From the NCBI RefSeq assembly GCF_963921235.1, contig NW_026948140.1:558001-622000 (forward strand): a DNA stretch of 64,000 bases, read 5' to 3'. The DNA comes from Mobula hypostoma. Its lineage: Eukaryota. Under the pieces are notes generated by a model. That model did not search any database and had not been told where the DNA came from. It saw nothing but the letters and a program-made list of their open reading frames with translations. A program made the translations under genes and the position numbers. This document shows, piece by piece, positions 23,156 to 64,000 of the stretch; positions within the stretch are counted from its first letter, which is position 1, and the number at the start of each line of letters is the position of its first letter.

Positions 23156-23164
23156 TGTAAATGA

Positions 23165-24625: not shown

Positions 24626-24629
24626 ATTG

Positions 24630-28642: not shown

Positions 28643-28999
28643 CTCTCCTTCTTTAATCCCTCCAAGTCTATCATGTTAAAAACAATGGAGCCCCAGAATA
28701 TTGAGTGGCCAGTCTTGCCCCTCTGGCAAGCAAGTCTCACTAATGGCTAAAATATCATTATTCTATGTGTGATCCATGCCCTGAGCTCATCTGCCTTTTC
28801 TACGATACTTCTTGCATTGACTAATACATAGCCCAGGATATCAGTCACATCATACTCAACCTTTTGGTCCTATATTTTGTATAAGGTCTTAACAACATCT
28901 GACTTTGCAGCCACTCCACCATCTGTTCTGGCACCCTGGTTCCCATCCCTCTCCTAATGATCCAAAAATCTTACACCCTCCCTCCTACATCAACTCCTT

Positions 29000-33985: not shown

Positions 33986-33999
33986 GGCAATAACTCCAC

Positions 34000-34305
34000 C
34001 ATCCAGAACGAGGGGTCCCAGTTTGAGGATAGAGGGGAAGCCTTTTAGGACCTAGATTAGGAAAAACTTCTTCACATAGAGAGTGGTGAATCTGTGGAAT
34101 TCTCTGCCACAGGAAACAGTTGAGGCCAGTTCATTGGCTATATTTAAGAGGGAGTTAGATACGGCCCTTGTGGCTCAAGGCATCAGGGGGTATGGAGGGA
34201 AGGCTGGTACAGGGTTCAGAGTTGGATGATCAGCAATGATCATACTGAATGGCGGTGCAGGCTCGAAGGGCCAAATGGCCTACTGCTGCACCTATTTTCT
34301 ATGTT
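34000..34305 (+). mobile_element. CR1 3' end
   Basis: RKNFFT-RVVNLWNSLP coding followed by the tail ending cctattttctatg. Copies at 41404-41705 (-), 44205-44525 (+) and 51040-51355 (-). Confidence 0.88.
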
Positions 34306-37300
34306 TTAACTTGAACTCCAGAATGGCAGTTAACGAGGAGGAAGGCCAAATAAAGACAAGTCAGTAACTGAGATGATGAGAATGTGGGCCAAAAGCAAGT
34401 TGGCAGGGTGAAGTGATACTGCATCTCCAGTACGAGATCCACTAACACTAGAGGGATATTTTCCCTACTGACTGCATACTCGTATCCTAACCAGAAGTGA
34501 CACATCCCTCATCATCCTGGTCCTCAAAAGCCAAAGTAAATCCATGAAGCTAGGAAAACGAGCACAGTTTACTGTGGTTAGGCCCCAACCCACACATCAA
34601 TTAACCACAAGCTGCTACCACTTTCTACCCACAGAGCAGTGAACCAACAGGTTGAACACTAAAGTCACAATTAAAAATGTAATCGTAAACGGAGAAATTG
34701 GATGAAATCTAATCTTAACTCTAGCTAGATATTAAAGGAATAGAAATAAAAAATTAGGGGCTCAAGGAATGGAGAAGATCAGGAAATAAATAGGAAAGTG
34801 AGATTAGCGGACCATTTACCTTTAACATTTTAAACACACAAGGCAGGCCTGTATCCCAGTAACAGTCAGGGGCTGCAGCGGAACTGGACAAACAGGTTTG
34901 GTAAAGCAATGCCGAGAATGGGTGGGGTGGGGGATAGGGTGGAACATTCCAGAGAGGGGAGACACAGAAACCCACATTTAAACAGAGCAACACAAATATA
35001 AAATGCTGGTGAATGCAGCAGGTCAGGCAGCATCTATAAGAAGAGGTACAGTCGACGTTTCGGGCTGAGACCCTTCGTCAGGACTAGAGAGCACCTGAGT
35101 TTTTACAGCACATTTCCTTGAAGAAGCCACAGGAGAGGCGAAACTGTAGACTCTCCCAGTCACTGCACAACCCACAGATCACAGCACCCAATCCATAAAA
35201 AAAACCCCAACCCCAAAACACTATCCATAAGCAATAACATAACCATTTTGCCAGTTGCCACCCCACCCCACAACCCTTTGCTGTGAATCCTCCACTCCCA
35301 TTACTTAATTCTACCCTCGGGCCTTCCCCCGTCCCATAACACCCCTCAGTTAGCGACAGCACAACCCCCAGGTCGCAGCACCCAGTCCCTGAAAAAGACT
35401 TACATAAGAAATAACTCCACCATTTTAACTTAAACTCCAGAACGGAGGTTAACGAGGAGGAAGATCCTGGTAAAGGGAAGTCGGGAACTGAGATGATGAC
35501 AACGTGGGCCAAAAACAAAGTGGTAGGGTGCAGTGATACTGCATCTTCAGTACGAGATCCACAAGAGGAATACTTTGCCAACTGGAGAAGTGAGATTAGC
35601 GGACAATTTACCTTTAACGGTTTAAACACACAAGGCAGGCCGGTATCCCAGCAACAGTCAGGGGCTGCAGCAGAACTCGACAAACAGGTTTGGTAAAGCA
35701 ATGCCGAGAATGTGTGTGTGTTGGGGGGGGGAATAGGGTGGAACATTCCAGAGGGGGGAGACAGACAAACCCACGTTTAAACAGTGAGCACCTGAGTTTT
35801 TACCGCACATTCCCTTGAGGAAGCCACTGGAGAGGCAGAACTGGAGACTCTCCCAGTCACTCAACAACACCCAGTCCCTAAAAAAACCCCAACCCCAAAA
35901 ACACTATCCATAAGCAATAACTCCATCACTTTGTCAGTTGCCACCCCACCCCACCTCCCTTTGCCGTGAATCCTCCACCCCCATTACTTAACTCTATGCC
36001 CGGACCTTCGCCCCCCCCCCAATAACACCCCTCAATAAGCTACTGCACAACCCCCAGATCAGAGCATCCAGCCCCTGAAAAAGACTCCCAACCCCAAAAC
36101 ACTCTACATAAGAAATAACTCCACCATTTTAACTTAAACTCTGGAACGCAGGTTAACGAGGAGGAGGATCCTAATAAAGGGAAGTCAGTAACTGAGGTGA
36201 TGAGAATGTGGTGGCAGGGTGAAGTGATACTGCATCTCCAGTACGAGATCCACAAACACTAGAGGGATATTTTGCCCATTGCCTGCATACTCGCATCCTA
36301 AGCAGAAGTGACACGTCCCTCATCATCCTGGTCCTTAAAAGCCAAAGTAAATCCTTCTTCTTCTTTTAAATCTTTTTATTGAGTAAGTATACAAAAAAGG
36401 TAAGCCATATAAACATTAATACAATGTTAAAGTATAATAAAATTCCAAAAGGTAACAATACCAAAAGGAAAATACTACAAACAATGTAATTTAAGCATAA
36501 GAAACCAAGATAACATAATAGTATACTAAATTTTATATATATCAATGGAAAAAAAAAGAAAAAAAAACCCCCCAAAAAAAAACCCACCGTGCAGCTAACT
36601 AAAAGCAAGGCAAAGCAATGGGCTAACTTGAAACCAAACAGAGTTAAACTTAAAATCACGTCCTCAATCCCGACCTCCATTAAAAACAGTGAAAAAAAAA
36701 ACAAGAAGGGTAAATATTACATTAAATGAAAATATCGAATAAAAGGTCCCCAAATCTGTTCAAATTTAAATGAAGAATCATAAAGGTTACTTCTAATTTT
36801 CTCCAAATTCAAACATAAAATCGTCTGAGAAAACCAAAAAAAGGTAGTTGGAGCATTAAGCTCTTTCCAATGTTGTAAAATACATCTTTTCGCCATTAAA
36901 GTAAGAAATGCAATCATTCTACGGGCTGAAGGGGAAAGATTACTAGAAATTTTAGGTAGTCCAAAGATAGCAGTAATAGGGTGAGGAGAGATATCTATAT
37001 TTAATACCTTAGAAATAATATTGAAAATATCTCTCCAAAAAGTTTCCAAAGTAGGGCAAGACCAAAACATATGAGTTAAAGAGGCTATCTGCCCCGAACA
37101 TCTATCACAGAAAGGATTAATATGCGAGTAAAAACGCGCTAACTTATCTTTGGACATATGTGCTCTATGAACCACTTTAAATTGAATTAGGGAATGTTTA
37201 GCACAAATAGAGGAAGTATCAAAGTAAATCCAAGAAGCTAGGAGAACTATCACAGACTACTGCGGTTAGGCCCCAACCTGAACATAAATTAACCACAAGC

Positions 37301-38335
37301 TTCGACCACTTTCTACCCACAGAGCAGTAAACCAACAGGTTGAACACTAAAATCACAATTAAACAATGTAATCCTAAATGGAGAAATAGGATGAAATCTA
37401 ATCTTAACTCTAACTAAATATTAAAGGAATAGAAATGAAAAATTAGGGGCTCAAGGAATGGAGAAGGTCACTAAACAGAGAGCACCTGAGTTTTTACAGC
37501 ACTTTCCCTTGAGGAAGCCACAGGAGAGGCGAAACTGGAGACTCTCCCAGTCACTGCACAACCCACAGATCACATCAACCAGTCTCTGAAAAAAACCCCA
37601 ACCCCAAAACACTATCCATAAGCAATAACACAACCATTTTAACTTAAACACCAGAACGGAGGTTAACGAGGAGGAAGATCCTGGAAAAGGGAAGTCGCGG
37701 ACTGAGATGATGACAACGTGGGCCAAAAACAATGTGGCAAGGTGAGGTGATACTGCATCTCCAGTACGAGATCCACAAACACAAGAGGGATACTTTGCCC
37801 ACTGGAGAAGTGAGATTAGTGGACAATTTACCTTTAACAGTTTAAACAAACAAGGCAGGCCGGTATCCCAGCAAAAGTCAGGGGCTGCAGCGGAACTGGT
37901 CAAACGGGTTTGGTCAAGCAATGCCGAGAATGGATGGGGTGGGTACAGTGGAACATTCCACGGGGGGGGGTGACACAGAAACCTACCTTTAAACAGAGAG
38001 CACCTGAGTTTTTACCGCACATTCCCTTGAGGAAGCCACAGGAGAGGCGAAACTGGGGGACTCTTCCAGTTACTGCACAACCCACAGATCACAGCACCCA
38101 GTCCCTAAAAAAAACCCCAACCCCAAAAACACTATCCATAAGCAATAACACAACCATTTTGCCAGTTGCCATCCCACCCTACCTCCCTTTGCCGTGAATC
38201 CTCCACCCCCAACTCTTAACTGTACCCCCGGGCCTTTCCCCCCACAACACTCCTCAGTGAGCTATTGCCCCACCCCAAGATCACAGTACACAGTCCCTAA
38301 AAAAAAAATCAACCCCAAAACACATAGGCAATAAC
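34306..38335 (+). repeat. PLE-B derived mosaic array (interrupted by L1 at 36355-37219)
   Basis: Permuted UTR blocks with HHR remnants at ~35113, 35809, 37503 and 38021. Confidence 0.88.
36355..37219 (-). mobile_element. 5'-truncated L1 insertion with 12-bp TSD
   Basis: Open ORF2 C-terminus (CDRC..SLTHMFWSCP). AATAAA and an A/GAA tail. CAAAGTAAATCC at both 36343-36354 and 37220-37231. Confidence 0.92.
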
Positions 38336-39575
38336 TCAAACACGAGGAATTCTGCAGATGCTGGAAATTCAAGCTACACACATCAAAATTGCTGGTGAAT
38401 GCAGCAGGCCAGGCGGCATCTCTAGGAAGAGGTACAGTCGACGTTTCGAGCCGAGCCCCTTCATCAGGACAAACTGAAGGAAGAGCTAGTAAGAGATTTG
38501 AAGCAACACTCACAACACGCTGGAGGAACTCAGCAGGTCAGCATCCGTGGAAAAGATCAGTCGATGTTTCAGGCCGGGACACTTCGTCAGGACTGGGTTT
38601 GAAAGTGGGAGGGGGAGAGGGAAATCCAAAATGATAGGACAAGACAGGAGGGGGAGGGATGAAGCCAAGAGCTGGACAGGTGATTGGCAAAAGTGATATG
38701 AGAGGATCATGGGACAGGAGGCCCAGGGAGAAGGAGAAGGGGGAGGGGCGAAAAACCCCGAGGATGGGCAAGGGGTATAATCAGAGGGACAGAGGGAGAA
38801 AAGAGAGAGAGAGAGAAAGAATGTGTGTATATAAACAAATAATGGATGAGGTACGAGGGGGAGGTGGGGCTTTAGCGGAAGTTAGAGAAGTCAATGTTCA
38901 TGCCATCAGGTTGGAGGCTACCCAGACGGAATATAAGGTGTTGTTCCTCCAACCTGACTGTGGCTTCATCTTTACAGTAGAGGATGCCGTGAACAGACAT
39001 ATCAGAATGGGAATAGGACGGGGAATTAAAATGTGTGGCCACTGGGAGATCCTGCTTTCTCTGGCGGACAGAGCGTAGCTGTTCAGCAAAATGATCTCCC
39101 AGTCTGCGTCAGGTCTCACCAATATATAGAAGGCCACATCAGGAGCACCGGATGCAGTATATCACCCCAGCCGGCTCAAAGGTGAAGTGTCACCTCAGCT
39201 GGAAGGACTGTCTGGGGCCCTGAATCACCTGTCCAGCTCTTGGCTCCATCCCTCCCCCTCCCATCTTCTCCTATCATTTTGGATCTCCCCCTCCCCCACA
39301 CACTTTCAAACCCAGTCCTGACGAAGCGTTCTGGCCCGAAACGTCAACCGATCTTTTCCACGGATGCTGCCCGACCTGCTGAGTTCCTCCAGCGTGTTGT
39401 GAGTGTTGCTTCAAATCTCTTACTAGCTCTTCCTTCAGTTTGTCCTGATGAAGGGGCTTGGCTCGAAACGTTGACTGTACCTCTTCCTAGAGATGCCGCC
39501 TGGCCTGCTGCGTTCACCAGCAATTTTGATGTGTGTAGCTTGAATTTCCAGCATCTGCAGAATTCCTCGTGTTTG
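38336..39575. mobile_element. Short PLE-A copy with inverted tail
   Basis: Minus-strand GIY-YIG and tail at 38336-39225. 39226-39575 is the inverted copy of 38336-38683. Confidence 0.88.
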
Positions 39576-41403
39576 AGTTATTGCCTATGTGTTTTGGGGT
39601 TGTTTTTTTTTAGGGACTGTGTGCTGTGATCTTGGGGTGCGGCAATAGCTCACTGAGGAGTGTTGTGGGGGGAAGGACTGGGGGTAGAGTTAAGTGTTGG
39701 GGGTGGAGGATTCACGGCAAAGGGAGGTAGGGCGGGGTGGCAACTGGCAAAATGGTTGTGTTATTGCTTATGGATAGTGTTTTTGGGGTTGGGGTTTTTT
39801 TTAGGGACTGGGTGCTGTGATCTGTGGGTTGTGCAGTAACTGGGAGAGTCTCCAGTTTCGCCTCTCCTGTGGCTTCCTCAAGGGAATGTGCGGTAAAAAC
39901 TCAGGTGCTCTCTGTTTAAAGGTAGGTTTCTGTGTCACCCCCCCCCCCGTGGAATGTTCCACCGTACCCACCCCACCCATTCTCGGCACTGCTTGACCAA
40001 ACCCGTTTGACCAGTTCTGCTGCAGCCCCTGACTTTTGCTGGGATACCGGCCTGCCTTGTTTGTTTAAACTGTTAAAGGTAAATTGTCCGCTAATCTCAC
40101 TTCTCCAGTGGGCAAAGTATCCTTCTTGTGTTTGTGGATCTCGTACTGGAGATGCAGTATCACTTCACCCTGCCACTTTGTTTTTGGCCCACATTGTCAT
40201 CATCTCAGTCCGCGACTTCCCTTTTCCAGGATCTTCCTCCTCGTTAACCTCCGTTCTGGAGTTTCTGTTAAAATGGTGGAGTTATTGTTTATGGATAGTG
40301 TTTTGGAGTTGGAGGTCCCTTTTTGGGACTGGGTACAGTGAACTGGGGGTTGTGCAGTAGCCCATTGAGGTGTATTATTGCGGGGGAGTGCCCGGGGGTA
40401 GAGTTAAGTAATGGGGGTGGAGGATTCATGTCGAAGGGAGGGGTGTGGGGTGGCAACCCGCAAAATGGTTATGTTATTGCTTATGGATAGTGTTTTGGGG
40501 TTGGGGTTTTTTTAGGGATGGGTGCTGTGATCTGGGGGTTTTAAAGGTGAATGTGAGAGTCTCCAATTTCACCTCTCCTGTGGCTTCCTCAAGGGAATGT
40601 GCTGTAAAAACTCAGGTGCTCTCTAGTCCTGACAAAGGGTCCCAGCCCGAAACGTCAACTGTACCTCTTCTTATAGATGCTGCCTGGCCTGCTGCATTCA
40701 CCAGCAATTTATATTTGTGTTGCTCTGTTTAAACATGGGTTTCTGTGTCTCCCCTCTCTGGAATGATCCACCCTATCCCCACCCCACCCATTCTCGGCAT
40801 TGCTTTACCAAACCTGTTTGTCCAGTTCCGCTGCAGCCCCTGACTGTTACTGGGATACAGGCCTGCCTTGTGTGTTTAAAATGTTAAAGGTAAATGGTCC
40901 GCTAATCTCACTTTCCTATTTATTTCCTGATCTTCTCCATTCCTTGAGCCCCTAATTTTTCATTTCTATTCCTTTAATATCTAGCTAGAGTTAAGATTAG
41001 ATTTCATCCTATTTCTCCGTTTACGATTACATTTTTAATTGTGACTTTAGTGTTCAACCTGTTGGTTCATTGCTCTGTGGGTATAAAGTGGTAGCAGCTT
41101 GTGGTTAATTGATGTTCGGGTTGGGGCCTAACCACAGTAAACTGTGCTCGTTTTCCTAGCTTCTTGGATTTACTTTGGCTTTTGAGGACCATGATGATGA
41201 GGGATGTGTCACTTCTGGTTAGGATACGAGTATGCAGTCAGTGGGGAAAATATCCCTCTAGTGTTTGTGGATCTCGTACTGGAGATGCAGTATCACTTCA
41301 CCCTGCCAACTTGCTTTTGGCCCACATTCTCATCATCTCAGTTACCGACTTGTCTTTATTTGGCCTTCCTCCTCGTTAACTGCCATTCTGGAGTTTAAGT
41401 TAA
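39576..41403 (-). repeat. PLE-B derived array, inverted orientation
   Basis: Reverse complement of the blocks at 37635-38335 and 44526-46550. Confidence 0.88.
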
Positions 41404-41724
41404 AACATAGAAAATAGGTGCAGGAGTAGGCCATTCGGCCCTTCGAGCCGGCACCGCCATTCAGTATGATCATGGCTGATCATCCAACTCTGAACCCTGT
41501 ACCAGCCTTCCCTCCATACCCCCTGATCCCTTTAGCCACAAGGGTCATATCTAACTCCCTCTAAAATATAGCCAATGAACTGGCCTCAACTGTTTCCTGT
41601 GGCAGAGAATTCCACAGATTCACCACTCTCTGTGTGAAGAAGTTTTTCCTAATCTCGGTCCTAAAAGGCTTCCCCTATATCCTCAAACTGTGACCCCTCA
41701 TTCTGGATGGTGGAGTTATTGCCT

Positions 41725-44185
41725 ACACACGTCAAGGTTGCTGGTGAATGCAGCAGGCCAGGCAGCATCTCTAGGAAGAGGTTCAGTTGACGTTTCGGGC
41801 CGAGACCCTTCGTCAGGACTAACTGAAGGAAGAGTGAGTAAGGGATTTGAAAGTGGGAGGGGGAGGGGGAGATCCAAAATGATAGGAGAAGACAGGAGGG
41901 GGAGGGATGGAGCCAAGAGCTGGACAGGTGATTGGCAAAAGGGATATGAGAGGATCACGGGACAGGAGGCCCAGGGAGAAGGAAAAGGGGGAGGGGGGAA
42001 ACCCCAAGAATGGGCAAGGGGTATAGTCAGAGGGACAGAGGGAGAAAAGAGAGAGAGTGAGAAAGAATGTGTGTATATAAATAAATAACGGATGGGTTAC
42101 GAGTGGGAGGTGGGGCATTCGCGGAAGTTAGAGAAGTCAATGTTCATGCCATCAGGTTGGAGGCAACCCAGACGGAATATAAGGTGTTGTTCCTCCAACC
42201 TGAGTGTGGCTTCATCTTTACAGTAGAGGAGGCCGTGGATAGACATATCAGAATGGAAATGGAATGTGGAATTAAAATGCGTGACCATTGGGAGATCCTG
42301 CTTTCTCTGGTGGACAGAGCGTAGCTGTTCAGAAAAATGATCTCCCAGTCTGCATCAGGTCTCGCCAATATATAGAAGGCCACATCGGGAGCACCGGACG
42401 CAGTATATCACCCCAGACGACTCACAGGTGAAGTGTCGCCTCAGCTGGAAGGACTGTCTGGGGCCCTGAATGGTGGAAAGGGAGGAAGTGTAAGGGCATG
42501 TGTAGCACTTGTTCCGCTTACAAGGATAAGTGCCAGGAGGGAGAACAGTGGAGAGGGATGGGGGGAACGAATGGACAAGGGAGTCGCGTAGGGAGCGATC
42601 CCTGTGGAAAGCGGGGATGGGGGACGGAAAGATGTGCTTAGTGGTGCGATCCCATTGGAGGTGGCGGAAGTTACGGAGAATAATATGTTGGACCCGGAGG
42701 CTGGTGGGGTGGTAGGTGAGGACCAGGGGAACCCTATTCCTAGTGGGGTGGCGGGAGGATGGAGTGAGAGCAGATGTGCGTGAAATGAGGGAGATGCGTT
42801 TGAGAGCAGAGTTGATGGTGGAGGAAGGGTAGCCCCTTTCTTTAAAAAAGGAGGACATCTCCCTCATCCTGGAATGAAAAGATTCATCCTGAGAGCAGAT
42901 GCGGCAGAGACGGAGGAATTGCGAGAAGGGGATGGCATTTTTGCAAGAGACAGGGTGAGAAGAGGAATAGCGTAGATAGCTGTGAGAGTCAGTAGGCTTA
43001 TAGTAGACATCAGTAGATAAGCTGTCTCCAGAGATAGAGACAGAAAGATCTAGAAAGGGGAGGGCGGTGTCAGAAATAGACCAGGTAAACTAGAGGGCAG
43101 GGTGAAAGTTAGAGGTAAATTTAATGAAGTCAACGAGCTCAGCATGCGTGCAGGAAGCAGCGCCAATGCAGTCGTCGATGCAGCGAAGGAAAACTGGGGG
43201 ACAGGTACCAGAATAGGTTTGGAACATAGATTGTTTCACAAAGCCAACAAAAAGGCTAGCATAGCTCGGACCCATACGGATGTCCATAGCTACACCTTTA
43301 GTTTGGAGGAAGTGGGAGGAGCCAAAGGAGAAATCATTAAGAGTAAGGACTAATTCCGCTAGACGGAGCAGAGTGGTGGTAGAGGGGAACTGATTAGGTC
43401 TGGAATCCAAAAAGAAGCGGAGAACTTTGAGACCTTCTTGATGGGGGATGGAAGTATATTGGGACTGGACATCCATGGTGAAAATAAAGCAGTGGGGGCC
43501 AGGGAACTTAAAATCATCGAAAAGTTTAAGAGCGTGTGAAGTGTCAGAAGCAACCTGATGCAGACTGGGAGATCGTTTTGCTGAACACTCACACTCTGTC
43601 CGCCAGAGAAAGCAGGATTTCCCATTGTCTATACATTTTAATTCCACATCCCATTCCCATTCTGATATGTCTATCCACAGCCTCCTCTACTGTAAAGATG
43701 AAGCCACACTCAGGTTGGAGGAACAACACCCTATCTTCCGTTTGGGTTGCCTCCAACCTGATGGCATGAACATTGACTTCTCTAATTTCTGCTAATGCCC
43801 CACCTCCCACTCGTACCCCATCCGTTATTTATTTATATACACACATTCTTTCTCTCAATCGATCTTTTCTCCCTCTGTCCCTCTGACTATACCCCTTGCC
43901 ATCCTCGGGGCTTTTTCCCCCCTCCCTCTTTTCCTTCTCCCTGGGTCTCCTGTCCCATGATCCTCTCTTATCCCTTTTGCCAATCACCCGTCCAGATCTT
44001 GGCTCCATCCCTCCCCCTCCTGTCTTCTCCTATCATTTTGGATCTCCCCCTCCCACTTTAAAATCTCTTACTAGTGCTTCCTTCAGTTAGTCCTGATGAA
44101 GGGTCTGGGCCCAAAACGTCGACTGTACCTCTTCCTAGAGATGCTGCCTGGCCTGCTGTGTTCACCAGCAACCTTGACGTGTGTA
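41725..44185 (-). mobile_element. PLE-A copy with inverted 3' segment, duplicate of 31430-33985
   Basis: ORFs 43090-43647 (RT) and 42355-42867 (CKRNKCYTC linker, VIYCVRCSRCGLLYIGET). Same inversion junction as ~33340. Confidence 0.92.
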
Positions 44186-44525
44186 GGCAATAACTCCACC
44201 ATCCAGAACGAGGGGTCACAGTACCAGAACGAGGGCTCATAGTTTGAGGATAAAGGGGAAGCCTTTTAGGACCGAGATTAGGAAAAACTTCTTCACACAG
44301 AGAGTGGTGAATCTGTGGAATTCTCTGCCACAGGAAACAGTTGAGGCCAGTTCATTGGCTATATTTTAGAGGGAGTTAGATATGACCCTTGTGGCTAAAG
44401 GGATCAGGGGGTATGGAGGGAAGGCTGGTACTGGGTTCAGAATTGGATGATCAGCCATGATCATACTGAATGGCGGTGCCACCTCGAAGGGCCGAATAGC
44501 CTACTGCTGCACCTATTTTCTATGT

Positions 44526-47500
44526 TTTAACTTAAACTCCAGAATGGCAGTTAACGAGGAGGAAGGCCAAATAAAGACAAGTCGGTAACTGAGATGATGA
44601 GAATGTGGGCCAAAAGCAAATTGGCAGGGTGAAGTGATACTGCATCTCCAGTACGAGATCCACAAAGACTAGATGGATATTTTGCCCACTGGAGAAGTGA
44701 GATTAGCAGGCAATTTACCTTTAACAGTTTAAACAAACAAGGCAGCCCGATTTCCCAGCAAAAGTCTCCAGTACGAGATCCACAAACACTGGAGGGATAT
44801 TTTCCCCACTGACTGCATACTCGTATCCTAGCCAGAAGTGACACGTCTCTCATCATCCTGGTCCTCAAAAGCCAAAGTAAATCCAAGAAGCTAGGAAAAC
44901 GAGCACAGTTTACTGTGGTTAGGCCCCAACCCGAACATCAATTAACCACAAGCTGCTACCACTTTATACCCACAGAGCAGTGAACCAACAGGTTGAACAC
45001 TAAAGTCACAATTAAAAATGTAATCGTAAATGGAGAAATAGGATGAAATCTAATTTTAACTCTAGCTAGATATTAAAGGAATAGAAATGAAAAATTAGGG
45101 GCTCAAGGAATGGAGAAGATCAGGAAATAAATAGGAAAGTGAGATTAGCGGACCATTTACCTTTAACATTTTAAACACACAAGGCAGGCCTGTATCCCAG
45201 CAACAGTCAGGGACTGCAGCGGAACTGGACAAACAGGTTTGGTAAAGCAATGCCGAGAATGGGTGAGGAGGGTAGGGTGGAACATTCCAGAGGGGGGAGA
45301 CAGACAAACCCATGTTTAACAGAGAGCATCTGAGTTTTTCCAGCACATTCCCTTGAGGAAGCCACAGGAGTCGCGAAACTGGAGACTCTCCCAGTCACTG
45401 CACAACCCCCAGATCACAGCACCCAGTCCCTAAAAATACCGCCAACTCCAGAACACTATCCATAAGCAATAACTCCACCATTTTAACTTAAACTCCAGAA
45501 TGGAGGTCAACAAGGAGGAAGATGCCTTTAAAGGCAAGTCGGGGACTGAGATGTGGGCCAAAAATAAAGTAGCAGGGTGAAGTGATACTGCATCTCCAGT
45601 ACGAGATCCACAAAGACTAGATGGACATTTTGCCCACTGGAGAAGTGAGATTAGCAGGCAATTTACCTTTAACAGTTTAAACAAACAAGGCAGCCCGATT
45701 TTCAGCAAAAGTCAGGGGCTGCTGCGGAACTGGACAAACAGGTTTGGTAAAGCAATGTCGAGAATGGGTGGGGTGGGGGATATGGTGGAACATTCCAGAG
45801 AGGGGAGACACAGAAACCCACGTTTAAACAGAGCAACACAAATATAAATTGTTGGTGAATGCAGAAGGCCAGGCAGCATCTATAAGATGAGGTACAGTTG
45901 ACGTTTCAGGCTGAGACCCTTCGTCAGGACTAGAGAGCACCTGAGTTTAAACAGAGAGCACCTGAGTTTTTATAGCACATTCCCTTGAGGAAGCCACAGG
46001 AGAGGCAAAATTGGAGACTCTCGCAGTCTCTTTTAAAACCCCCAGATCACAGCACTCAGTCCCTAAAAAAATCCCAACCCCAAAACACTATCCATAAGCA
46101 ATAAATCCACCATTTTGCAGGTTGCCACCCCACACCCCTCCCTTCGCCGTGAATCCTCCACCCCCATTACTTAACTCTACCCCTGGGCACTCCCCCCCAT
46201 AACACACCTCAATGGGCTACTGCACAACCCCCAGATCACTGTACCCAGTCCTAAAAAAGGACCTCCAACTCCAAAACACTATCCATAAACAATAACTCCA
46301 CCATTTTAACTTAAACTCCAGAATGGAGGTTAATGAGGAGGAAGATCCTGGTAAAGGGAAGTCGGGAACTGAGATGATGACAACGTGGGCCAAAAACAAA
46401 GTGGTAGGGTGCAGTGATACTGCATCTTCAGTACGAGATCCACAAGAGGAATATTTTGCCCACTGGAGAAGTGAGATTAGCAGACAATTTACCTTTAACG
46501 GTTTAAACACACAAGGCAGGCCGGTATCCCAGCAACAGTCAGGGACTGCAGCGGAACTCGACAAACAGGTTTGGTAAAGCAATGCTGAGAATGTGTGTGT
46601 GTGCGGGGCGGGACAGGGTGGAACATTCCAGAGGGGGGAGACAGACAAACTCACGTTTAAACAGAGAGCACCTGAGTTTTTACCGCACATTCCCTTGAGG
46701 AAGCCACTGGAGAGGCAGAACTGGAGACTCTCCCAGTCACTCAACAACACCCAGTCCCTAAAAAAACCCCAACCCCAAAAACACTATCCATAAGCAATAA
46801 CTCCATCATTTTGTCAGTTGCCACCCCACCTCCCTTTGCCATGAATCCTCCACCCCCATTACTTAACTCTATCCCCAAACCTTCCCCCCAATAACACCCC
46901 TCAATAAGCTACTGTACAAACCCCAGATCAGAGCACCCAGTCCCTGAAAAAAATCCCAACCCCAAAATATTATCCATAAGCAATAACTCCACCATTTTAA
47001 CTTAAACTCCAGAACGAGGGTGAACGAGGAGGAAGCTCCTAATAAAGGCAAGCTGGGGACCGAGATGATGACAACGTGGGCCAAAAACAAAGTGGCAGGG
47101 TGAAGTGGTACTGCATCTCCAGTACGAGATCCACAAACACTGGAGGGATATTTTGCACACTGACCACATACTCGCATCCTAACCAGAAGTGACACATCTC
47201 TCATCATCCTGGTCCTCAAAAGCCAAAGTAAATCCAAGAAGCTAAGAAAACTAGCACAGACTACTGCGATTAGGCCCCAACCTGAACATAAATTAACCAC
47301 ATGCATCTACCACTTTATAGCCACAGAGCAGTGAACCAACAAGTTAAACACTAAAGTCACAATTAAACAATGTAATCCTGAAAGGAGAAATAGGATGAAG
47401 TCTAATCTTAACTCTAACTAGATATTAAAGGAATACAAATGAAAAAAATCGTGGCTGAAGGAATGGAGAAGGTTACTAAACAGGGAGTACCTGAGATTTT

Positions 47501-48108
47501 ACAGCACATTCCCTTGAGGAAGCCACTGGAGATGCGAAAATGGAGACTCTCCCAGTCACTGCACAACCCCCAGATCACAGCAGTCAGTCCCTAAAAAAAC
47601 TCCCAACTATCCATAAGCAATAACTCCACCATTTTAACTTAAACACCAGAATGGAGGTTAACGAGGAGGAAGATCCTAATAAAGGCAAGTCGGGGACTGA
47701 GATGATGACAATGTGGGCCAAAAACAAAGTGGCAGGATGAAGTGATACTGCATCTCCAGTACGAGATCCACAAACACTAGATGGATATTTTGCCCACTAG
47801 TGAAGTGAGATTAGCGGACAATTTACCTCTAACAATTTAAACAACCAAGGCAGGCCTGTATCCCAGCAACAGTCAGGGGCTGCAGCGGAACTCGACAAAC
47901 AGGTTTGGTAAAGCAATGATGAGAATGTGTTGTGGGGGTAGGGTGGAACATTCCAGAGGGGGGAGACACACAAACCCATGTTTAAACAGAGAACCCCTGA
48001 GTTTTTACAGCATATTCCCTTGAAGAAGCCACAGGAGAGGCGAAACTGGAGATGCTCCCAGTCACTGCACAACCCCCAGATCACAGCACTCAGTCCCTAA
48101 AAAAACTT
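44526..48108 (+). repeat. PLE-B derived mosaic array with HHRs
   Basis: HHR remnants at ~45347, 45978, 46688, 47508 and 48014. Partly duplicates 34306-36354. Confidence 0.88.
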
Positions 48109-54678: not shown

Positions 54679-55401
54679 TGTTTATTCCAAAGGAAAGGAT
54701 AACCTTCTTAGTTTCCAGTTGTGGTTCTAACTTTGTCAGGATAGCAGTGGCATGGGTGAATTTGGCTCCCGGAAAGCTGTCCAACTGAACATCCTTATTA
54801 GGGCATCTTTTGATCCTGTAAATGTTCGAGTCCCCTATAACTAGTATAGGTTTAAGGGGCCTTAGTTCCCAAGTTACATTTTTCTGTTTAGAGTGAGGAT
54901 GCCTCGTTATTTGACCCTCCTGGTTGTTGCAAATAGAGGTTACCTGTCCTCTTGTTTCTCCCATGTCCTCCGACTCTCAGGCTGTGTGGTTCCCTGGGGT
55001 GGAAGACTTGCTCGGTCTTCGTGTACTGGCTCCCCTTGTCTGTATGCCCATCCGCACTGGTGTGGGGTGGGGTGCTGATTCCTCAGAGTCTAGGGTCGGA
55101 GAGGCCGTGGGGGCGGCGGGCTGGGGCTCCCCTGCTCCTAGGTTGGATTGCGTCTTCTCCGAGGGGCTCATGGGTGGGGAGGGGCTCACCTGGCGTCTTC
55201 TCTGTTCCTGTGATTGGGGCAGTGGGGCCGCATCGGCGTCGAGTGGGTTAACTAGCTCCGGCGCCCTCCCGTGGACGGCGCCGGAACTCCCACTGCACGT
55301 GCTGTTCTCAGGACCTGTTGGTCTGAGACAGTCCCGCAGCAGAACTACCGGACTCAAGTTCGTTTTACTCGTCGCCGACGGACGGGGTACAGCTTGAGCG
55401 G
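54679..55401 (-). mobile_element. PLE-B ORF1 internal fragment (linker plus SGNH N-half)
   Basis: Matches 59510-60304 apart from an internal indel. Confidence 0.92.
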
Positions 55402-55430
55402 TTAGGGTTAGGGTTAGGGTTAGGGTTAGG
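55402..55430 (+). repeat. Interstitial vertebrate telomeric repeat (TTAGGG)4-TTAGG at a PLE-B junction
   Basis: Direct read: ttagggttagggttagggttagggttagg. Confidence 0.95.
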
Positions 55431-57035: not shown

Positions 57036-59282
57036 TTAGCCCTCGTTCAGGCCGTTTGGGGAATGCGTCTGTAGTCTTTCAATCCATCTCCTCTCTGTTC
57101 TTTTTCTTTGGAGGTTTGACCAGTTTATGTTGGTTTCCAGGCCCAGGATTGCTAAGGAGTACATTCCATGCTCCAGGAAGTGCCTACTAACTGGTCTGTT
57201 TTGGTTTCCTCTTGTGATATTACTGAGGTGTCCTGTGAGTGTGGTTCTCAGGCTGTTGCCTGTCTCCCCTATGTATATGATATGGCATTGTTTTGCATAT
57301 ACTACATTCCGTTGTTCACAAGTTATCCCCTGCTCTATCTCAGCCCACTTTCCTGTAGCTCTGTTGTGTATGCTTTTTGAAATTCTGATGTATATGCACG
57401 CCCTGCAGTTTCCCACCTCGCAGTTTGGCGCTGTTCGTACTTTGGTACTGACTAGTATGTCTTTTAAGTTTCTACCCCTTTTGAAGGCTGAAACTATGGT
57501 GTATTGTCCCAGTGTCCCCCCTTCCTCCTTTAGATTTTCAAAGTGTGTTTTGACTGTCTTGTGGATATTCACTGCCATCCCACTGTATCCTGTTATCAAG
57601 GGTAGTTTCTGTGTTGTGTTGTCCCGTGGTCGGGGATTTGTGATACTTTTTAAAAAGTCAGATTTGATGTGTCTGAGTCTCCGTCTGCTGTAGCCCCTGT
57701 GTCTAAGTGCAGAGAAGAGGATAAGAGTGGCTTGGTGGAAGTCCTCTGCCCTGGTGCAAATGTGATGAAACCGGGTCAGCTGTCCTTTGACAATGCCTCT
57801 GAAGGTGTGTTTGGGATGGTGGCTCCCGGTGTGTAGGAGGGTGTGTGTGTCTGTGGTTTTAAAGAATACTTTGGTGGCTAGTTTCTGGCTGCCATTTTTT
57901 GGTGCTTGTTTAAATACCGTAGTGTCCAGGAAGTCAATTTTCTCCCTATCTGTTGCGGCCTTAACCTTAATGGATGGATGATGAGTGTTTAGGATTTGAA
58001 TAAATTCCTCTAATTCTACCTCTGAGTGTGTCCACACTCCCCAGATGTCATCTAGGTATCTATAGAGACACATGGGTTTCTTGGGGCACTTTGGATAAAC
58101 AGTTTCCTCCCATTTTGCCATGTGTATATTGGCATAGGCTGGAGCAAACTTCTTTCCCATCGCTGTGCCCTTGACTTGTAAGTAGAATTCATTATTGAAT
58201 TCAAAGTCATTTTTAGTTAGGCTGAGGGGAAGGAGTTCTAACAAGGCCTCGTCTGGTCTCTCTAGCTGAGGGTTCTCCCGAAGGATATCCCTCACTGCCT
58301 CTATACCCCTGTCCGTTTCTACATTGGTGTACAGGCTTTCAATGTCCATGGTGAAGAGTATGGCCTCAGGGGGCACTGACATGGAATTGACTATCCCGAC
58401 AAAGTGGTACGTGTCCTTGATGTAGCTGGAGTGTTTCTGCGATAGTGGGTTAAGGAAGGCATCAATGTATTCTGCTATCCTGTATGACTCACTGCCGCAG
58501 TCCGACACGATGGGTCTGCCGGGTGGTATTTCTCCCGGAACAGTCCATGAGTCTGGGTTCTTGTGTATTTTGGGGAGGATATAGAACTTTCTTGCTTGTG
58601 GCTGTATCCCTGTCAGGTACTCCACCTGCTTCTTCCCGAGGTATCTAGTTCTTTCTAGTTCTCGCAGAATGTTCCTGATTTCTGTGTGTGTTTCCCAGTA
58701 TATGGGTTCCTTTAGTTTAGTGTAGTGCTCCATGTTATTTAATTGCCTGCGTGCCTCAAATAGATATTGCTGTTTATCCATGATCACTATGCTGCTCCCT
58801 TTACCTGCTGGTTTGATAACAATATCCATATTTTCTCTCAACTCCTTCCGGGCTGCTCTCTCCTTCCTAGTTAGATTGGGTTTATCCTGTACCTTTGTCT
58901 CCCTCTCCATTATCTCATCCAGTGTGCTCTCAAATGGCAGGACCGCTTCTGACCTGTACCTCCTCTTGGACATCCAGTCTGAGGGTGGGGTGAAAGGGGT
59001 CTTTCTATGTTCTGTCTCCCCAAAAAAGTCAACCAGTACCACTCTCCTGTAGAACTTATCCATGCCCCCCTCAGTCTGCTCCTTATGGAGTTCTGGAGTC
59101 AGTACAAAAGTGAGGCCCCTGTTCAGAACTTTTTGCTGGGTTTCTGTAGGGATGAATGTATGGGAGAGGTTCACGACTGTCTCTCCCAGTCGTGGACCCT
59201 GCCTCTCTCGGCTTTGTCTCCACTCTAGTTTAAAGACTGCATCCACCTCTTGACTATGGTCAGGGATGTGTTCTCTGTCCAA
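57036..59282 (-). CDS. Penelope-like reverse transcriptase + GIY-YIG endonuclease (748-codon open frame, non-ATG 5' end)
   Basis: VVNLS..LNRGLTF, FYILPKIHK, GRPIVS, TMDIESLYTN, QVKGTAMG, RYLDD, CEVGNCRAC linker, NVVYA..YIGETG and NGLNE. Confidence 0.95.
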   Translation of the reverse strand: MDREHIPDHSQEVDAVFKLEWRQSRERQGPRLGETVVNLSHTFIPTETQQKVLNRGLTFVLTPELHKEQTEGGMDKFYRRVVLVDFFGETEHRKTPFTPPSDWMSKRRYRSEAVLPFESTLDEIMERETKVQDKPNLTRKERAARKELRENMDIVIKPAGKGSSIVIMDKQQYLFEARRQLNNMEHYTKLKEPIYWETHTEIRNILRELERTRYLGKKQVEYLTGIQPQARKFYILPKIHKNPDSWTVPGEIPPGRPIVSDCGSESYRIAEYIDAFLNPLSQKHSSYIKDTYHFVGIVNSMSVPPEAILFTMDIESLYTNVETDRGIEAVRDILRENPQLERPDEALLELLPLSLTKNDFEFNNEFYLQVKGTAMGKKFAPAYANIHMAKWEETVYPKCPKKPMCLYRYLDDIWGVWTHSEVELEEFIQILNTHHPSIKVKAATDREKIDFLDTTVFKQAPKNGSQKLATKVFFKTTDTHTLLHTGSHHPKHTFRGIVKGQLTRFHHICTRAEDFHQATLILFSALRHRGYSRRRLRHIKSDFLKSITNPRPRDNTTQKLPLITGYSGMAVNIHKTVKTHFENLKEEGGTLGQYTIVSAFKRGRNLKDILVSTKVRTAPNCEVGNCRACIYIRISKSIHNRATGKWAEIEQGITCEQRNVVYAKQCHIIYIGETGNSLRTTLTGHLSNITRGNQNRPVSRHFLEHGMYSLAILGLETNINWSNLQRKRTERRWIERLQTHSPNGLNEG

Positions 59283-59797
59283 TGGATGTGGTCTGTGTCT
59301 ACCTTAAACTGCCTCGTCGGGATTGCAGGGATATAATTCTTAGTTTTAATAACCTCATTTAGTTGGCCCAGGGTTGCTTGTTCTGCCTCTGTCAAACAGT
59401 GGCTAAAGTTCAGCTCTGGCACCCGGATACTGGCATTGGGAAATTTTATATGGGCCATTCTTAATAATTGCTGAAGCTGTTTAGTCGCTGTTGCTGGTTG
59501 ATGTGACCTATTGTTTATTCCAAAGGAAAGGATAACCTTCTTAGTTTCCAGTTGTGGTTCTAGCTTTGTCAGGATAGCAGTGGCATGGGTGAATTTGGCT
59601 CGCTGAAAGCTGTCCAATTGAACATCCTTATTAGGGCATCTTTTGATCCTGTAAATGTTCGAGTCCCCTATAACTAGTATAGGTTTAAGGGGCCTTAGTT
59701 CCCAAGTTACATTTTTCTGTTTAGAGTGAGGATGCCTGGTTATTTGACCCTCCTGGTTGTTGCAAATAGAGGTTACCTGTCCTCTTGTTTGTCCCAT
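59225..59797 (-). CDS. SGNH/GDSL-type esterase domain (C-terminal part of PLE-B ORF1)
   Basis: LVIGDSN (block I), SF(P/Q)(G/R)A (II), LSFGINN (III) and DHIH (V, DxxH). Confidence 0.85.
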   Translation of the reverse strand: MGQTRGQVTSICNNQEGQITRHPHSKQKNVTWELRPLKPILVIGDSNIYRIKRCPNKDVQLDSFQRAKFTHATAILTKLEPQLETKKVILSFGINNRSHQPATATKQLQQLLRMAHIKFPNASIRVPELNFSHCLTEAEQATLGQLNEVIKTKNYIPAIPTRQFKVDTDHIHWTENTSLTIVKRWMQSLN

Positions 59798-59809
59798 GTC
59801 CTCCGACTC

Positions 59810-60988
59810 TCAGGCTGTGTGGTTCCCTGGAGTGGAAGACTTGCTCGGTCTTCGTGTACTGGCTCCCCTTGTCTGTGTGCCCATCCGCACTGGTGTGGGG
59901 TGGGGTGCTGATCCCTCGGAGTCTTGAGTCGGGGAGGCCATGGGGGCGGCGGGCTGGGGCTCCCCTGCTCCTAGGTTGGATTGCATCTTCTCCGAGGGGC
60001 TCATGGGTGGGGAGGGGCTCACCTGGCGTCTTCTCTGTTCCTGTAACTGGGGCAGTGGGGCCGCATCGGCGTCGAGTGGGTTAACTTGCTCCAGCGCCCT
60101 TCCGTGCACAGTGCCGGAACTCCCACTGTAAGTGTCGGCGCTGGGAGGACTAACTAGCTCCAGCGCCCTCTCGTTGACGGTGCCGGAACTCCCACTACAC
60201 GTGTTGTTCTCAGGACCTGTTGGTCTGAGACAGTCCCGCAGCACAATTACCGGACTCAAGTTCGCTTTACTCGTCGCCGATGGACGGGGTGCAGCCTAAG
60301 CGGTCTTTTTCCGGGGCTCGGGTGTGATACGGGTCCGGTCACGTTTGACCCAGAAGCCGTCCCTGGAGGTGGAGGGTCTGTTCCCCTCTTCCTCTTGGGA
60401 TGCGGTTTCCATTGTCCGTGGGTTCATTGTGGCCGCATCCGAATTGTGGGGCCCCTCGTGGGCCCGGTCTGCCGCGGCCTGCCGTTCTGGCACAGGTCTT
60501 GAGACCAGATCAAAAATATGCTTTTGGACGTCCTCCAATTTGATTTGAAATTTTTCCTTTAAATTTCGTTTGTTCCAGATTGCGGCTTTGCTGATTGCTT
60601 CTGGTAAGCGATCAGTCAGATCCGATTCACTAAATTTTAGTTCCAATTCTTGCAGGCTGTTTTGGTAATGATCAATGAAAATGTGACGTGTTTGTTTACC
60701 CCAAGCGTCCGCATTGGCAGCAATTTTGCGAAGCGTTTCTTGGGAGTGGTTCCCCGGCTTTGTGAATTTGGTCAGTCTGTATGCCTGGGTGGTGATCCCC
60801 TTCGGTGGCCTGATCATTTGTTCCAAAACTCTTAGGTGGTGCAGAGTCTGGATTATTTTATATATTAATCTAACCGTGGTGGAAAACGAATCCCTGGGAA
60901 ACCCGGGGTTTCTGCCGGTACCACGGTAGTCTGATGCGCCATGTGCTGGCAGGCCCCCGGTCCTCTCTCTCGAATTTCTCATCCACAT
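59810..60988 (-). CDS. PLE-B ORF1 N-terminal helical domain plus Pro/Ser-rich linker (interrupted by TAG at 60296-60298)
   Basis: ORFs 60296-60988 and 59810-60259 are in frame. Sister fragments carry CAG (62256-62258) and CAA (55394-55396) at the TAG position. Confidence 0.75.
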
Positions 60989-61131
60989 CGTTAAAGTAAG
61001 ACAATAATCAGAAAACTACAGATGAAGTCCACTTAATTAATGTCCTTAGCGCTTGTTCTTCGTTTTGGGTTCCGTGATTTCGACTCCTGCGAATTGCCTT
61101 TAACGAAGCGTATTGCCTTCCATAAAGCGTA

Positions 61132-61190
61132 TTTCCCGACTGGGAGAGTCACCAGTTTCGCCTGTCTCTTTGGCTTCCTCATGGGGAATT
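61132..61190 (-). ncRNA. Type I hammerhead ribozyme motif of PLE-B
   Basis: Minus strand: uuccc-c-AUGAGGA-A-GCC(aaagagaca)GGC-GAAA-CUGG(ugacucuc)CCAG-UC|gggaa. Stems I, II and III all pair and there is a GUC cleavage triplet. The core deviates from CUGANGA. Confidence 0.75.
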
Positions 61191-61747
61191 CTGTAAAGAC
61201 TGAGGTGGTCTTCCTTTAAAATGTTCCACTCCACTCCCCGCAGCCCCCCCCACCCAAAACCGCCCACCTCCCACCTCTGTATTGTTTAACCAAACATGTT
61301 TGTCCATTCCTGCTGCAGCACCTGGCTGTTGCCGGCCCGCCCTATTTGTTAAGACTCTTAAAGGTAAATTATCCACTAATCGCGCTGCTCCTTTATATTA
61401 TTTGACCCTCCCCATTCTTTTCGCCCCTAATTTTTTATTTCTATTCCTTTAATACCTAGTTAGAGTTGAGATTAAATTGCATCCTATTTCTCCTTTTAGA
61501 ATTACGTTGTTTAATTGTGACTTAAGTGTTCAAACTGTGAATTTACTGTTCTGTGGGTAAAACGTGGCGGAAGCTTGTGCCAAATGTATGTTGGGGTTGG
61601 GGTTTAAACTCAGTAGTCTGTGCCAGTTTTCCTAGCTTCTTCGATTTACTTTGGCTTTTGAGGACCAGGATGATGAGAGACGTGTCACTTCTGGTTAGGA
61701 TGCGAGTATGCGGGCAGTGGGCAAAATATCCCTGTAGTGTTTGTGGA

Positions 61748-62263
61748 CTTGCTCGGTTCTCGTGTGCTGGCTCCCCTTGTCTGTGTGCCCATCCGCACTG
61801 GTGTGGGGTGGGGTGCTGATCCCTCAGAGTCTTGGGTCGGGGAGGCCATGGGGGCGGCGGGCTGGGGCTCCCCTGCTCCTAGGTTGGATTGCGTCTTCTC
61901 CGAGCGGCTCATGGGTGGGGAGGGGCTCACCTGGCGTCTTCTCTGTTCCTGTGGCTGGGGCAGTGGGGACACATCGGCGTCGAGTGGACGGGGCCGGAAC
62001 TCCCACTGCGGGAACTCCCTCTCGTGGACGGTGGCGGAACTCCCACTGCGCGTGTCTGCGCTGGGAGGACTAACTAGCTCCAGCGCCCTCTCGTGGACGG
62101 TGCCGGAACTCCCACTGCGGGAACTCCCTCTCGTGGACGGTGCCGGAACTCCCACTGCACGTGCTGTTCTCAGGACCTGTTGGTCTGAGACAGTCCCGCA
62201 GCACAATTACCGGACTCAAGTTCGTTTTACTCGTCGCCGATGGACGGGGTGCAGCCTGAGCGG
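61748..62263 (-). mobile_element. PLE-B ORF1 linker fragment with internal micro-duplications
   Basis: Matches 59836-60304 and ends at the same AGCGGT point as the 54679-55401 fragment. Confidence 0.9.
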
Positions 62264-62270
62264 TTAGGGG

Positions 62271-64000
62271 TTAGGATGCGAGTATGCGGGCAGTAGGCAA
62301 AATATCCCTCTAGTGTTTGTGGATCTCGTACTGGAGATGCAGTATCACTTTACCCTGCCACTTTGTTTTTTGCCCACGTCATTATCATCTCGGTCCCCAA
62401 CTTTCCTTTACTGGGATCTTCCTCCTCTTCAACCTCCATTCTGGAATTTAAGTTACAATAGTGGAGTTATTGTCTATGGATAGTGTTTTGTATTTTGGGT
62501 CTCCTTTATAGGGACTGTGTGCTGTGATCTGGGGGTTGTGCGGTAGCTAATTGAGGGGTGTTGTGGGGAGGGACATGCCCGGGGGTAGAGTTAGGTAATG
62601 GGGGTTGAGGATTCACGGCGAAGGGAGGTGGGGTGGGGTGGCAATTGGCATTGCGGGGATGGGTGTGTCCCCTGCAGTAGCCGGGAGGGCTGAAATGGGA
62701 GCCTAGCTACTGTTGATATTGGGCGAGTTTGGCCCCTTGATGGGGTAAGGGCTTGGGTTTATGGGGGTGTGTAGCAGGGTTGGAGATATTAGGTTTAGGG
62801 GTAGGGTAATGCACTGTTATATAAGCCCTTTAGTGTGGTGTGGTTTGGGTTCTTTGGGGTGCTGTCCGGTTTAGTTGGGTTGCGCGATCCCTTGGAAATT
62901 AGGGTTATGGTTTAGTTGGGGTGTGTGGTCCTCCGGATGTTAGGATTAGGTTGAGGGGGTTAGGGTTGAGGGGGGCCCGCTGGGCGGCGGGAGGTATAAC
63001 TGGTGATGTGGGGTGAGTTTGCCCCTCTGGCGAGAAGAGGTTTTGTGTTTATGGGGTGTGAAGATGTTAGGTTTCAGGGCAGGGTCATGTGCTGGGGATG
63101 TATTCTTCCACATAGGGGAAGCTGGGAAGTTGGGGCAAGTGCTGTGTCTGGATTAAACCGGTCGTTACGCGTCTGTTCTTCCTAGTGGTTAACTCCTGTA
63201 GCGTTCTAATTTCTAGTTTTACTCCTCTCTACTTGGGGAATTAGGTTCCGTTCTGGGGCCCAGTTGTTAGGCTCTATTTCCAAAGTAAGACGAACCTTTC
63301 CTATTTAATGGTCCCCTGTCTTAATTTGTTTCAGGGTGGGTGACTGAAGGGGATCTTCCCCTTGTTCCCTACTCTAATTTTCTCAATTTTTAAAAAAATT
63401 ACGGGGTGTAGTGTTGGCCCTTCGGTGAGTACATTTTATGTTGCTGGCCTGGTTTTTTAGGCCTCGTTTAGGCCGTTTGGGGAATGCGTCTGTCGTCTTT
63501 CAATCCATCTCCTCTCTGCTCTTTTTCTTTGGAGGTTTGACCAGTTTATGTTGGTTTCCAGGCCCAGGATTGCTAAGGAGTACATTCCATGCTCCAGGAA
63601 GTGCCTACTAACTGGTTTGTTTTGGTTTCCTCCTGTGATATTACTGAGGTGTCCTGTGAGTCTTGTTCTCAGGCTGTTGCCTGTCTCCCCTATGTATATG
63701 ATATGGCATTGTTTACACTGGATTGCATATACTACATTCTTTTGTTCGCAAGTTATCCTCTGCTCTATCTCAGCCCACTTCCCTGTAGCTCTGTTGCGTA
63801 TGCTTTTTGAAATTCTGATGTATATGCACGCCCTGCAGTTTCCCACCTCGCAGTTTGGCACTGTTCGTACTTTGGTACTGCTTGGTATGCCTTTTAAGTA
63901 TCTACGCCTTTTGAAGGCTGAAACTATGGTGTATTGTCCCAGTGTCCCCCCCCTTCCTCCTTTAGATTTTCAAAGTGTGTTTTGACTGTCTTGTGGATAT
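62271..64000 (-). mobile_element. Next tandem PLE-B copy: 3' UTR and GIY-YIG end, runs off the window
   Basis: ORF 63457-63861 (NVVYAIQCKQCHIIYIGETG..NGLNE). The UTR matches 55426-57036 and is preceded by TTAGGGG-TTAGG at 62264-62275. Confidence 0.93.

Follow-up and report, generated by a model that had tools for sequence, protein, structure and literature searches.

A type I hammerhead motif with an altered core in a telomere-associated EN+ Penelope-like element of Mobula hypostoma

The window, by which we mean the whole 64,000-nt stretch of DNA analyzed, carries on its minus strand a two-ORF, endonuclease-encoding (EN+) Penelope-like element (PLE) with a hammerhead motif (61131..61190) upstream of its first reading frame. 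The placement of a type I motif of a PLE at the border between 3′-UTR-derived sequence and leader, proposed in an earlier note on this DNA, was upheld. A 5′ leader, delimited by comparison of copies, runs from the predicted cut to the ATG of ORF1 at 60988; it measures 149 nt here (60989..61137), in agreement with the roughly 150 nt given earlier. In many other copies the leader carries a 153-nt duplication. This duplication begins beside the spot, window position 61113 and 25 nt downstream of the hammerhead cut, at which two copies (L010 and L011) bear independent insertions of an abundant second PLE family; the two insertions differ in length and show duplications of about 14 nt. ORF1 (59225..60988, minus strand, 587 codons) has two internal stops in the window copy and a C-terminal SGNH/GDSL-like domain (Pfam Lipase_GDSL_2, E 5e-4, short of the cut-off). 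Just before its stop lies a slippery heptamer, T TTA AAC (59228..59234, minus strand), with ORF2 in the −1 frame.

By domain search and alignment, ORF2 (57036..59303, minus strand) encodes a PLE RT (RVT_1, E 5e-6, just short of the cut-off), a CX4CX2C linker and, at the C terminus, a GIY-YIG endonuclease with a CCHH motif, the order that characterizes EN+ PLEs. The ORF2 of the window is open, yet it has lost three residues of the endonuclease zinc motif and carries two motif substitutions. The zinc motif is intact in the GIY-YIG domain of the upstream tandem copy (63460..63969, minus strand; 32.5 bits in Pfam against a cut-off of 22.6). ORF2 has 1805 homologues at E ≤1e-20. Its linker agrees with the CX2-5CxxC pattern of Neptune, a linker type common to Nematis, and inspection by eye of 20 aligned homologues showed it in 2, the closest pair; by this linker, the element appears to be an EN+ PLE of Neptune type. 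Relatives were drawn from metagenomes as 78 loci with related RTs, from the best 80 of 465, and ORF1 gave tblastn matches in 36 of these 78; viral contigs searched for relatives of the element yielded none. The element is low-copy in the genome (at least 27 matches to the motif and 69 to the RT), and its tandem or partial-tandem copies form a pseudo-LTR with the hammerhead, which at the window locus is present on the 5′ side only. Elsewhere in the window, the abundant second PLE family contributes minimal hammerheads at 33885-33928 (+) and 35046-35089 (−) and about a dozen weaker copies, and decayed, putatively CR1-like RT fragments and an 84-bp tandem repeat lie at 18400-21946, 48253-53291 and 6192-7290.

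The motif itself was delimited with a descriptor, resampled windows and a covariance model. As had been claimed, it has three-stem geometry and a GUC triplet with a predicted cut between 61138 and 61137: all on the minus strand, we found stem II (GCC/GGC, 3 bp; 61174-72/61162-60), stem III (ACUGG/CCAGU, 5 bp with an 8-nt loop; 61156-52/61143-39), the GAAA of the core (61159-61156) and the 3′ strand of stem I, GGGAAAU (61137-31). In hammerhead numbering, U4 falls at 61181, G10.1 at 61174, G12 at 61159, A15.1 at 61156, U16.1 at 61139 and C17 at 61138, and cleavage is predicted at C17/G1.1 (61137..61138). The three helices open at helix I, the topology of type I. The core deviates from the textbook form in two ways: A9 and G10.1 are separated by an extra A (61175), a hallmark of PLE hammerheads that the earlier note did not list, and an A stands beside U4 in place of the C3 expected of a type I hammerhead (61182). 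The latter, placed by copy comparison, folding and a tree, can be read as the core residue at position 3 or as bulged between C3 and U4. The 5-bp stem I described earlier is consistent with the bulged register (−11.7 kcal/mol), and a second register with A3 and a C-A mismatch is nearly equal to it (−11.4 kcal/mol). Together with the extra nucleotide, the copy has the G10.1-C11.1 pair of PLE hammerheads; absent is the vestigial palindromic helix III of the minimal metazoan forms.

Upon searching the 64-kb window with the descriptor, this motif was the sole three-stem match, and none of 60 Markov-resampled windows contained an equally good one. A covariance model trained only on 18 hammerheads from related elements of other organisms matched 61146-61190 (17.4 bits, rough E 0.009), with the long stem III outside the match. 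The search with hammerhead models that the earlier note had suggested as a check was less informative: Rfam gave no match at the gathering score, and no hammerhead family up to E 10 within 44000-64000, a weak test since the two minimal hammerheads of the second family located above were missed as well. Free folding of the window motif did not yield the hammerhead (z −0.5 to +0.2). The constrained hammerhead fold lay about 6-7 kcal/mol above the predicted minimum for the window copy and about 6-8 kcal/mol above it for canonical copies, and in the latter the predicted pairing probability of stems II and III was at most 0.04. In 12 family copies, 93% of the cells in hammerhead stems were paired. 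The proposed check on stem covariation says little here, as the 12 copies contain no two-sided changes in stems that scarcely vary; 7 of 8 stem pairs covary in 18 relatives, which had themselves been chosen by a pairing rule. A small hairpin appears in the predicted fold just upstream of the hammerhead (61192-61210, minus strand); by eye, the same hairpin also looks possible in the diverged array copies described below, and an extended stem I would face competition from it.

To follow the motif across the genome, we searched 3.48 Gb in 200 contigs and obtained at least 27 matches, made up of 20 dispersed copies (the window copy included) and 7 in a local array. Position 3 is A in 11 of the dispersed copies, C in 7, U in 1 and G in 1. 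Seventeen of the 20 continue past the cut, and among these L012 and L015 are fully canonical, with CUGAGGA, all three stems and a 7-bp stem I. Because L012 and L015 have the complete core and the window copy does not, we classed the family motif as a hammerhead and the window copy as a core-mutant derivative. In a tree built from the 205 nt that precede the motif (31 rows, without L006, L014, L016 and L017, which had no homologous flank), the ten A3 rows formed one clade with support of 100/96, sister to the U3 copy, and the C3 copies fell outside. This nesting among C3 copies implies that A3 is the derived state of a young clade. The ancestral core is the canonical C3, and position 3 changed later in separate lineages. 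The variant core reported earlier is thus present in the window copy as A at position 3, but is not family-wide.

Comparison of the groups indicated where change has accumulated. Between A3 and C3 copies, core plus stems differed at 2/34 versus 47/194 in loops and upstream DNA (p 0.013), and between A3 copies and the array at 3/33 versus 62/191 elsewhere (p 0.006); between C3 copies and the array the figures were 2/33 versus 28/189, which is not significant (p 0.27). In each of the three comparisons, the sole core difference was position 3. Within the A3 clade, core plus stems were somewhat more conserved than the flanks (5/451; p 0.005-0.06) and not different from the loops, a weak contrast that fits continued function. 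Judged from the aligned copies, the ancestral hammerhead (CUGAGGA, 7-bp stem I, 5-bp stem III) has been conserved against its flanks.

The local array (14191..48063), identified by comparison of genome and window, contains 15 3′-end fragments of a diverged subfamily with U at position 3. All 15 stop at position 17 and then run into 3′-UTR sequence; lacking the 3′ strand of stem I (GGGAAA), they are 3′-end fragments unable to fold as hammerheads. The UUGAGGA of these copies, which had been taken as a ribozyme consensus, therefore cannot serve as one. We also considered the array as a non-LTR retrozyme, defined by complete hammerheads in at least two consecutive tandem units (bioRxiv 10.64898/2026.07.22.740005), and rejected this since complete hammerheads are absent from its consecutive units, again for want of the stem I 3′ strand.

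Ends at C17 are nonetheless not confined to the array. Three of the 20 dispersed copies (L018, L019 and L020) stop there, giving with the array, whose 15 copies count as one event at best, four independent junctions that end exactly at C17. In each, the C17 end is joined to another copy at an internal position that differs from junction to junction, with partial microhomology; a further tail breakpoint in L018 falls away from C17. None of the 11 A3 copies ends at C17 compared with 4 of 10 others (p 0.035, or 0.07 without the array), a small and non-independent sample. Among 51 genome matches to 60700-61400, none starts at G1.1. The proposal that the hammerhead defines both RNA ends is unsupported, because no copy begins at the cut, and most dispersed copies read through the site. 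In the genomic copies, the hammerhead marks one class of 3′ ends, at C17, and these ends suggest that the ancestral ribozyme cut the RNA 3′ end.

To place these features, we ran the descriptor on the 78 related loci and found 38 matches in 34 loci, some from the same element, with 37 on the sense strand; shuffled sequences gave 0, 1 and 1. Position 3 was C in 36 of the 38 matches and U in 2 (one locus), with A in none, and the extra A was invariant in 29 aligned relative hammerheads. None of the 37 sense matches had a long stem III, all having a loop III of 2-4 nt, which bears out the earlier remark that the 5-bp stem and 8-nt loop of the window copy far exceed the usual vestigial form. In the literature, the extra base between 9 and 10.1 is described as a conserved feature of PLE hammerheads, metazoan motifs are minimal, and telomere-associated fungal and protist PLEs have a large helix III with monomer activity (PMC4209133). 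The hammerhead of an Anolis PLE is reported to be abolished by C3G and to need protein (PMC11167929), and insertions near C3 to impair hammerhead cleavage (PMC3088659). In light of the relatives and these accounts, the extra A is unremarkable, a stem III of this length is atypical of animal PLEs, and A3 is likelier a loss or damping of function than a new core. The flagged motif is a real copy of a PLE hammerhead, and its cutting is probably weakened.

The C17 class is not the commoner type of 3′ end. More often, a copy ends 555 nt upstream of the cut, at an internal CCTAACC that leads directly into telomere repeats, a link missing from the earlier note; the telomeres of the host are TTAGGG. 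In the window copy, this putative priming site, identified by junction comparison, lies at 61693..61699 and is separated from the cut by a 555-nt tail (61138..61692), both on the minus strand. The downstream copy lacks this tail at its 3′ end, where CCTAACC leads into about five telomere repeats and then into the 5′-truncated next copy (55400..55430, minus strand). A like junction with about two repeats ends the upstream copy (62262..62275, minus strand). Loose contig ends at 61692-61695 occurred in 4 of 4 public sequencing runs from two studies, one of them being telomere repeats; these runs consist of contigs only, with RNA a guess, and permit no reading of starts, ends or expression. None of their contigs covers position 3.

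Genome-wide, a 30-base pattern of motif plus repeat, which demands about two repeats, gave 106 junctions versus 0 for the reversed pattern. We entered 100 of the 106 in the mapping and dropped 15 as an internal UTR repeat, and of the remaining 85, 73 lie on contigs longer than 5 Mb. Among the junctions listed, 38 of these 73 fall within 100 kb of a contig end (about 0.15% expected), on 13 contig ends, and all 38 face inward; the other 35 are internal. The 69 RT matches form 34 clusters, and of the 26 clusters on contigs longer than 5 Mb, 14 lie no more than 100 kb from an end, with 34 of 37 near-end matches inward and 3 outward. Telomere repeats terminate 5 of the 13 junction-bearing contig ends; satellite terminates several others, as well as the contig from which the window comes. 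A satellite common to many contig ends, its units about 20 bp long, caps the ends of C46, C5, C2, C52 and C37 and the starts of C75, C91, C71, C63 and C67, in several cases just beyond clusters of the PLE. On C18, about 2.6 kb of terminal telomere repeats directly adjoin a truncated copy, beyond which come tandem units that repeat one junction. The copies are non-independent, as many arose by tandem or subtelomeric duplication; the same junction occurs three times on C18 and on C1. At 20 sampled junctions the telomere tracts comprise about 2-12 repeats, and beyond the tract, 8 of these junctions continue with a same-sense copy and 12 with other DNA. As read from the assembly, copies are stacked head-to-tail with the 5′ end toward the chromosome end and capped by short telomere tracts, the polar arrangement of Athena, Coprina and Terminon. 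In L019 (C1 near 113.57 Mb), the first 500 nt in the element sense form an array of about 80-nt units, each made of about 60 nt from upstream of the CCTAACC motif and 3-4 telomere repeats. This array looks like repeated short rounds of RT or a local duplication at an internal site.

Some of these tracts carry a signature of host telomerase. We located the telomerase RNA gene (L188) at G000:C9:30128925-30129411 (RF00024, 186.9 bits), in which the sequence right after the template is UGUGAGGGCA. Telomere repeats followed by this flank were found at 80 sites versus 0 for a permuted control; many sites lie inside terminal arrays and many are internal, and two forms differ by C/T. These 80 sites may be viewed as a genome-wide record of telomerase misalignment or healing. 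Upon comparison of 42 of the 80 sites, three PLE junctions lay within 120 nt of one, and at two junctions the match to the flank extends over 9 and 10 nt, with one C for T relative to the assembled gene. Some tracts open with the flank directly on a truncated copy or on unique DNA. At mouse interstitial sites, flank bases copied with the first repeat are described as the mark of repeats added at a break (PMC2246262). The flank therefore suggests that host telomerase made at least some of the tracts, on which the element would prime afterwards.

Taken together, we consider it probable that the motif is the hammerhead of a telomere-joining EN+ PLE, that A3 has weakened it, and that insertion proceeds via the internal CCUAACC. 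Host telomerase would place a small number of repeats on the end of a chromosome, on a broken end or on a truncated cDNA. Element RNA would then pair its CCUAACC with the G-rich 3′ end, and the RT would start there, the hammerhead cutting the RNA 555 nt further 3′. The free cut end would be copied only occasionally, when the RT jumps onto it, and a whole hammerhead before ORF1 would result from reading across an uncut or re-ligated junction. A3 in the window copy most likely reduces cutting or stops it altogether, an effect the element could tolerate because insertion would not need the cut; insertion of the Anolis PLE in vitro is reported to be independent of hammerhead cleavage (PMC11167929).

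Other explanations were weighed against this one. We doubt that, as the earlier note proposed, the A3 form is an active variant ribozyme working as a monomer, although a slip of stem I by one base, with C61183 acting as C3 and the A bulged, would preserve the C3-G8 pair. The U-to-C change in stem I that permits the slip came with the change at position 3, and the slipped register is slightly favored in energy and in pairing probability (0.09-0.43 vs 0.01). The same reading would accommodate the different fixation of position 3, alone among core positions, across the three groups, the single core change in 165 cells of the A3 copies, and the monomer activity conferred on a fungal PLE hammerhead by a long helix III (PMC4209133). 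It is at odds with the lack of A3 among relatives and of C17 ends among A3 copies, with the sharp reduction in activity described for a natural two-base insertion beside C3 (PMC3088659), and with one public contig that runs uncut across the site, a contig of depth 4 that stops short of position 3 and may be DNA. Chance resemblance to a hammerhead, for which one could cite the missing Rfam match and folding z-scores near zero, has a negligible probability and is refuted by the resampled windows, the canonical copies in the genome and the same motif in the same place in relatives.

For the junctions, it is possible, if unlikely, that the GIY-YIG endonuclease nicks the G strand of existing telomere repeats, as opposed to priming on fresh telomerase-extended ends, with the hammerhead read as before. 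Nicking would produce identical polarity, some copies retain intact endonuclease motifs, roughly half of the junctions lie internally, and EN+ PLEs are described as favoring microsatellites (PMC8557442). Existing repeats are harder to reconcile with the shortness of all 20 sampled tracts, the pattern itself demanding about two repeats, and with some tracts that begin with the telomerase-RNA flank, given the mouse precedent (PMC2246262). A mixed route, from endonuclease break to telomerase to RT, may also operate. Quite improbable, in our estimate, is that the C17 ends reflect a second internal RT start or a structural hot spot for template switching, the motif being kept as a protein-binding fold. 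The Anolis element offers a parallel, in that the cut coincides with neither the start nor the end of any RNA read and the RT starts internally at two start sites (PMC11167929); the microhomology at C17 junctions and the absence of starts at G1.1 would fit as well. What speaks against it is that four independent junctions fall on the exact base predicted by hammerhead chemistry in a tail of about 555 nt.

On the preferred explanation, a vertebrate EN+ PLE would move by pairing an internal 7-base site with telomerase-fresh repeats and build subtelomeric arrays, and position 3 of its long-stem-III hammerhead would have been damped more than once; this full statement we hold to be evenly balanced between right and wrong. 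PLE hammerheads are already well known, and the telomere attachment of the EN+ host element is the part worth following. Attachment to telomeric overhangs has been described as unique to EN− PLEs (PMC8557442, PMC6431247), and a vertebrate EN+ element that primes on telomerase products would, if confirmed, blur this split and offer a model of chromosome-end use by the closest mobile relatives of telomerase. C-strand telomere-like runs occur anywhere in 29 of the 78 related loci and downstream of the RT in 24 (L085, L087, L137, L147 and others, from other organisms), with G-strand runs in none. The C-strand runs are only a hint, since part of them is coding, as with the Pro-Asn repeats in L084, and shuffled sequences yield 2.6 loci. 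If the explanation holds, they hint at a wider clade as an extant bridge from EN+ PLEs to telomeric EN− PLEs and telomerase. The role of the hammerhead is directly testable, as the predicted cut coincides with 3′ ends in the genome and C3, A3 and U3 versions co-occur naturally, among them a canonical C3 copy at G000:C5:14903-15026 and a U3 copy at G000:C71:55267113-55267236. In the literature covered, we found no telomere-attached EN+ PLE of a vertebrate; Repbase, subscription journals and supplements lay outside this scope, and an earlier description is possible.

MjPLE01 of the kuruma shrimp is associated with telomeres. It has lost its endonuclease, unlike the ray element (PMC8557442). With minimal metazoan PLE hammerheads, including that of fish Neptune, as described, the motif shares type I topology, the extra base, G10.1-C11.1 and its pseudo-LTR position, and it differs in the 5-bp stem III, the non-palindromic 8-nt loop, the 3-bp stem II and A3 (PMC4209133). 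The long helix III and the telomere-associated host element recall the hammerheads of fungal and protist EN− PLEs in the same account, from which it is set apart by a vertebrate host element that encodes GIY-YIG (PMC4209133). As in PAc (Poseidon) of Anolis carolinensis, the RT start is internal, the tail optional and the hammerhead read through; PAc is described with start sites lacking homology to its AT-rich targets and a tail of 30-40 bp, whereas the start of the ray element matches the telomere repeat and its tail is 555 nt (PMC11167929). Neptune-type EN+ PLEs likewise have the CX2-5CxxC linker, a CCHH endonuclease and an optional frameshifted ORF1, but their described preferred targets are (TA)n (PMC8557442). 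In behavior the element resembles Athena, Coprina and Terminon, with which, by the published descriptions, it shares a short stretch complementary to G-rich telomere repeats, head-to-tail chains, 5′ truncation by short telomere tracts and a GDSL-like accessory domain (PMC8557442, PMC6431247). It differs from them in its endonuclease and vertebrate host, and in the position of the complementary stretch, which in EN− PLEs is described just downstream of the hammerhead and here lies 555 nt upstream of the cut (PMC8557442, PMC6431247). As judged from its genomic copies, this is Athena-like behavior in an EN+ vertebrate element: it works like Athena, Coprina and Terminon, yet it is not one of them.
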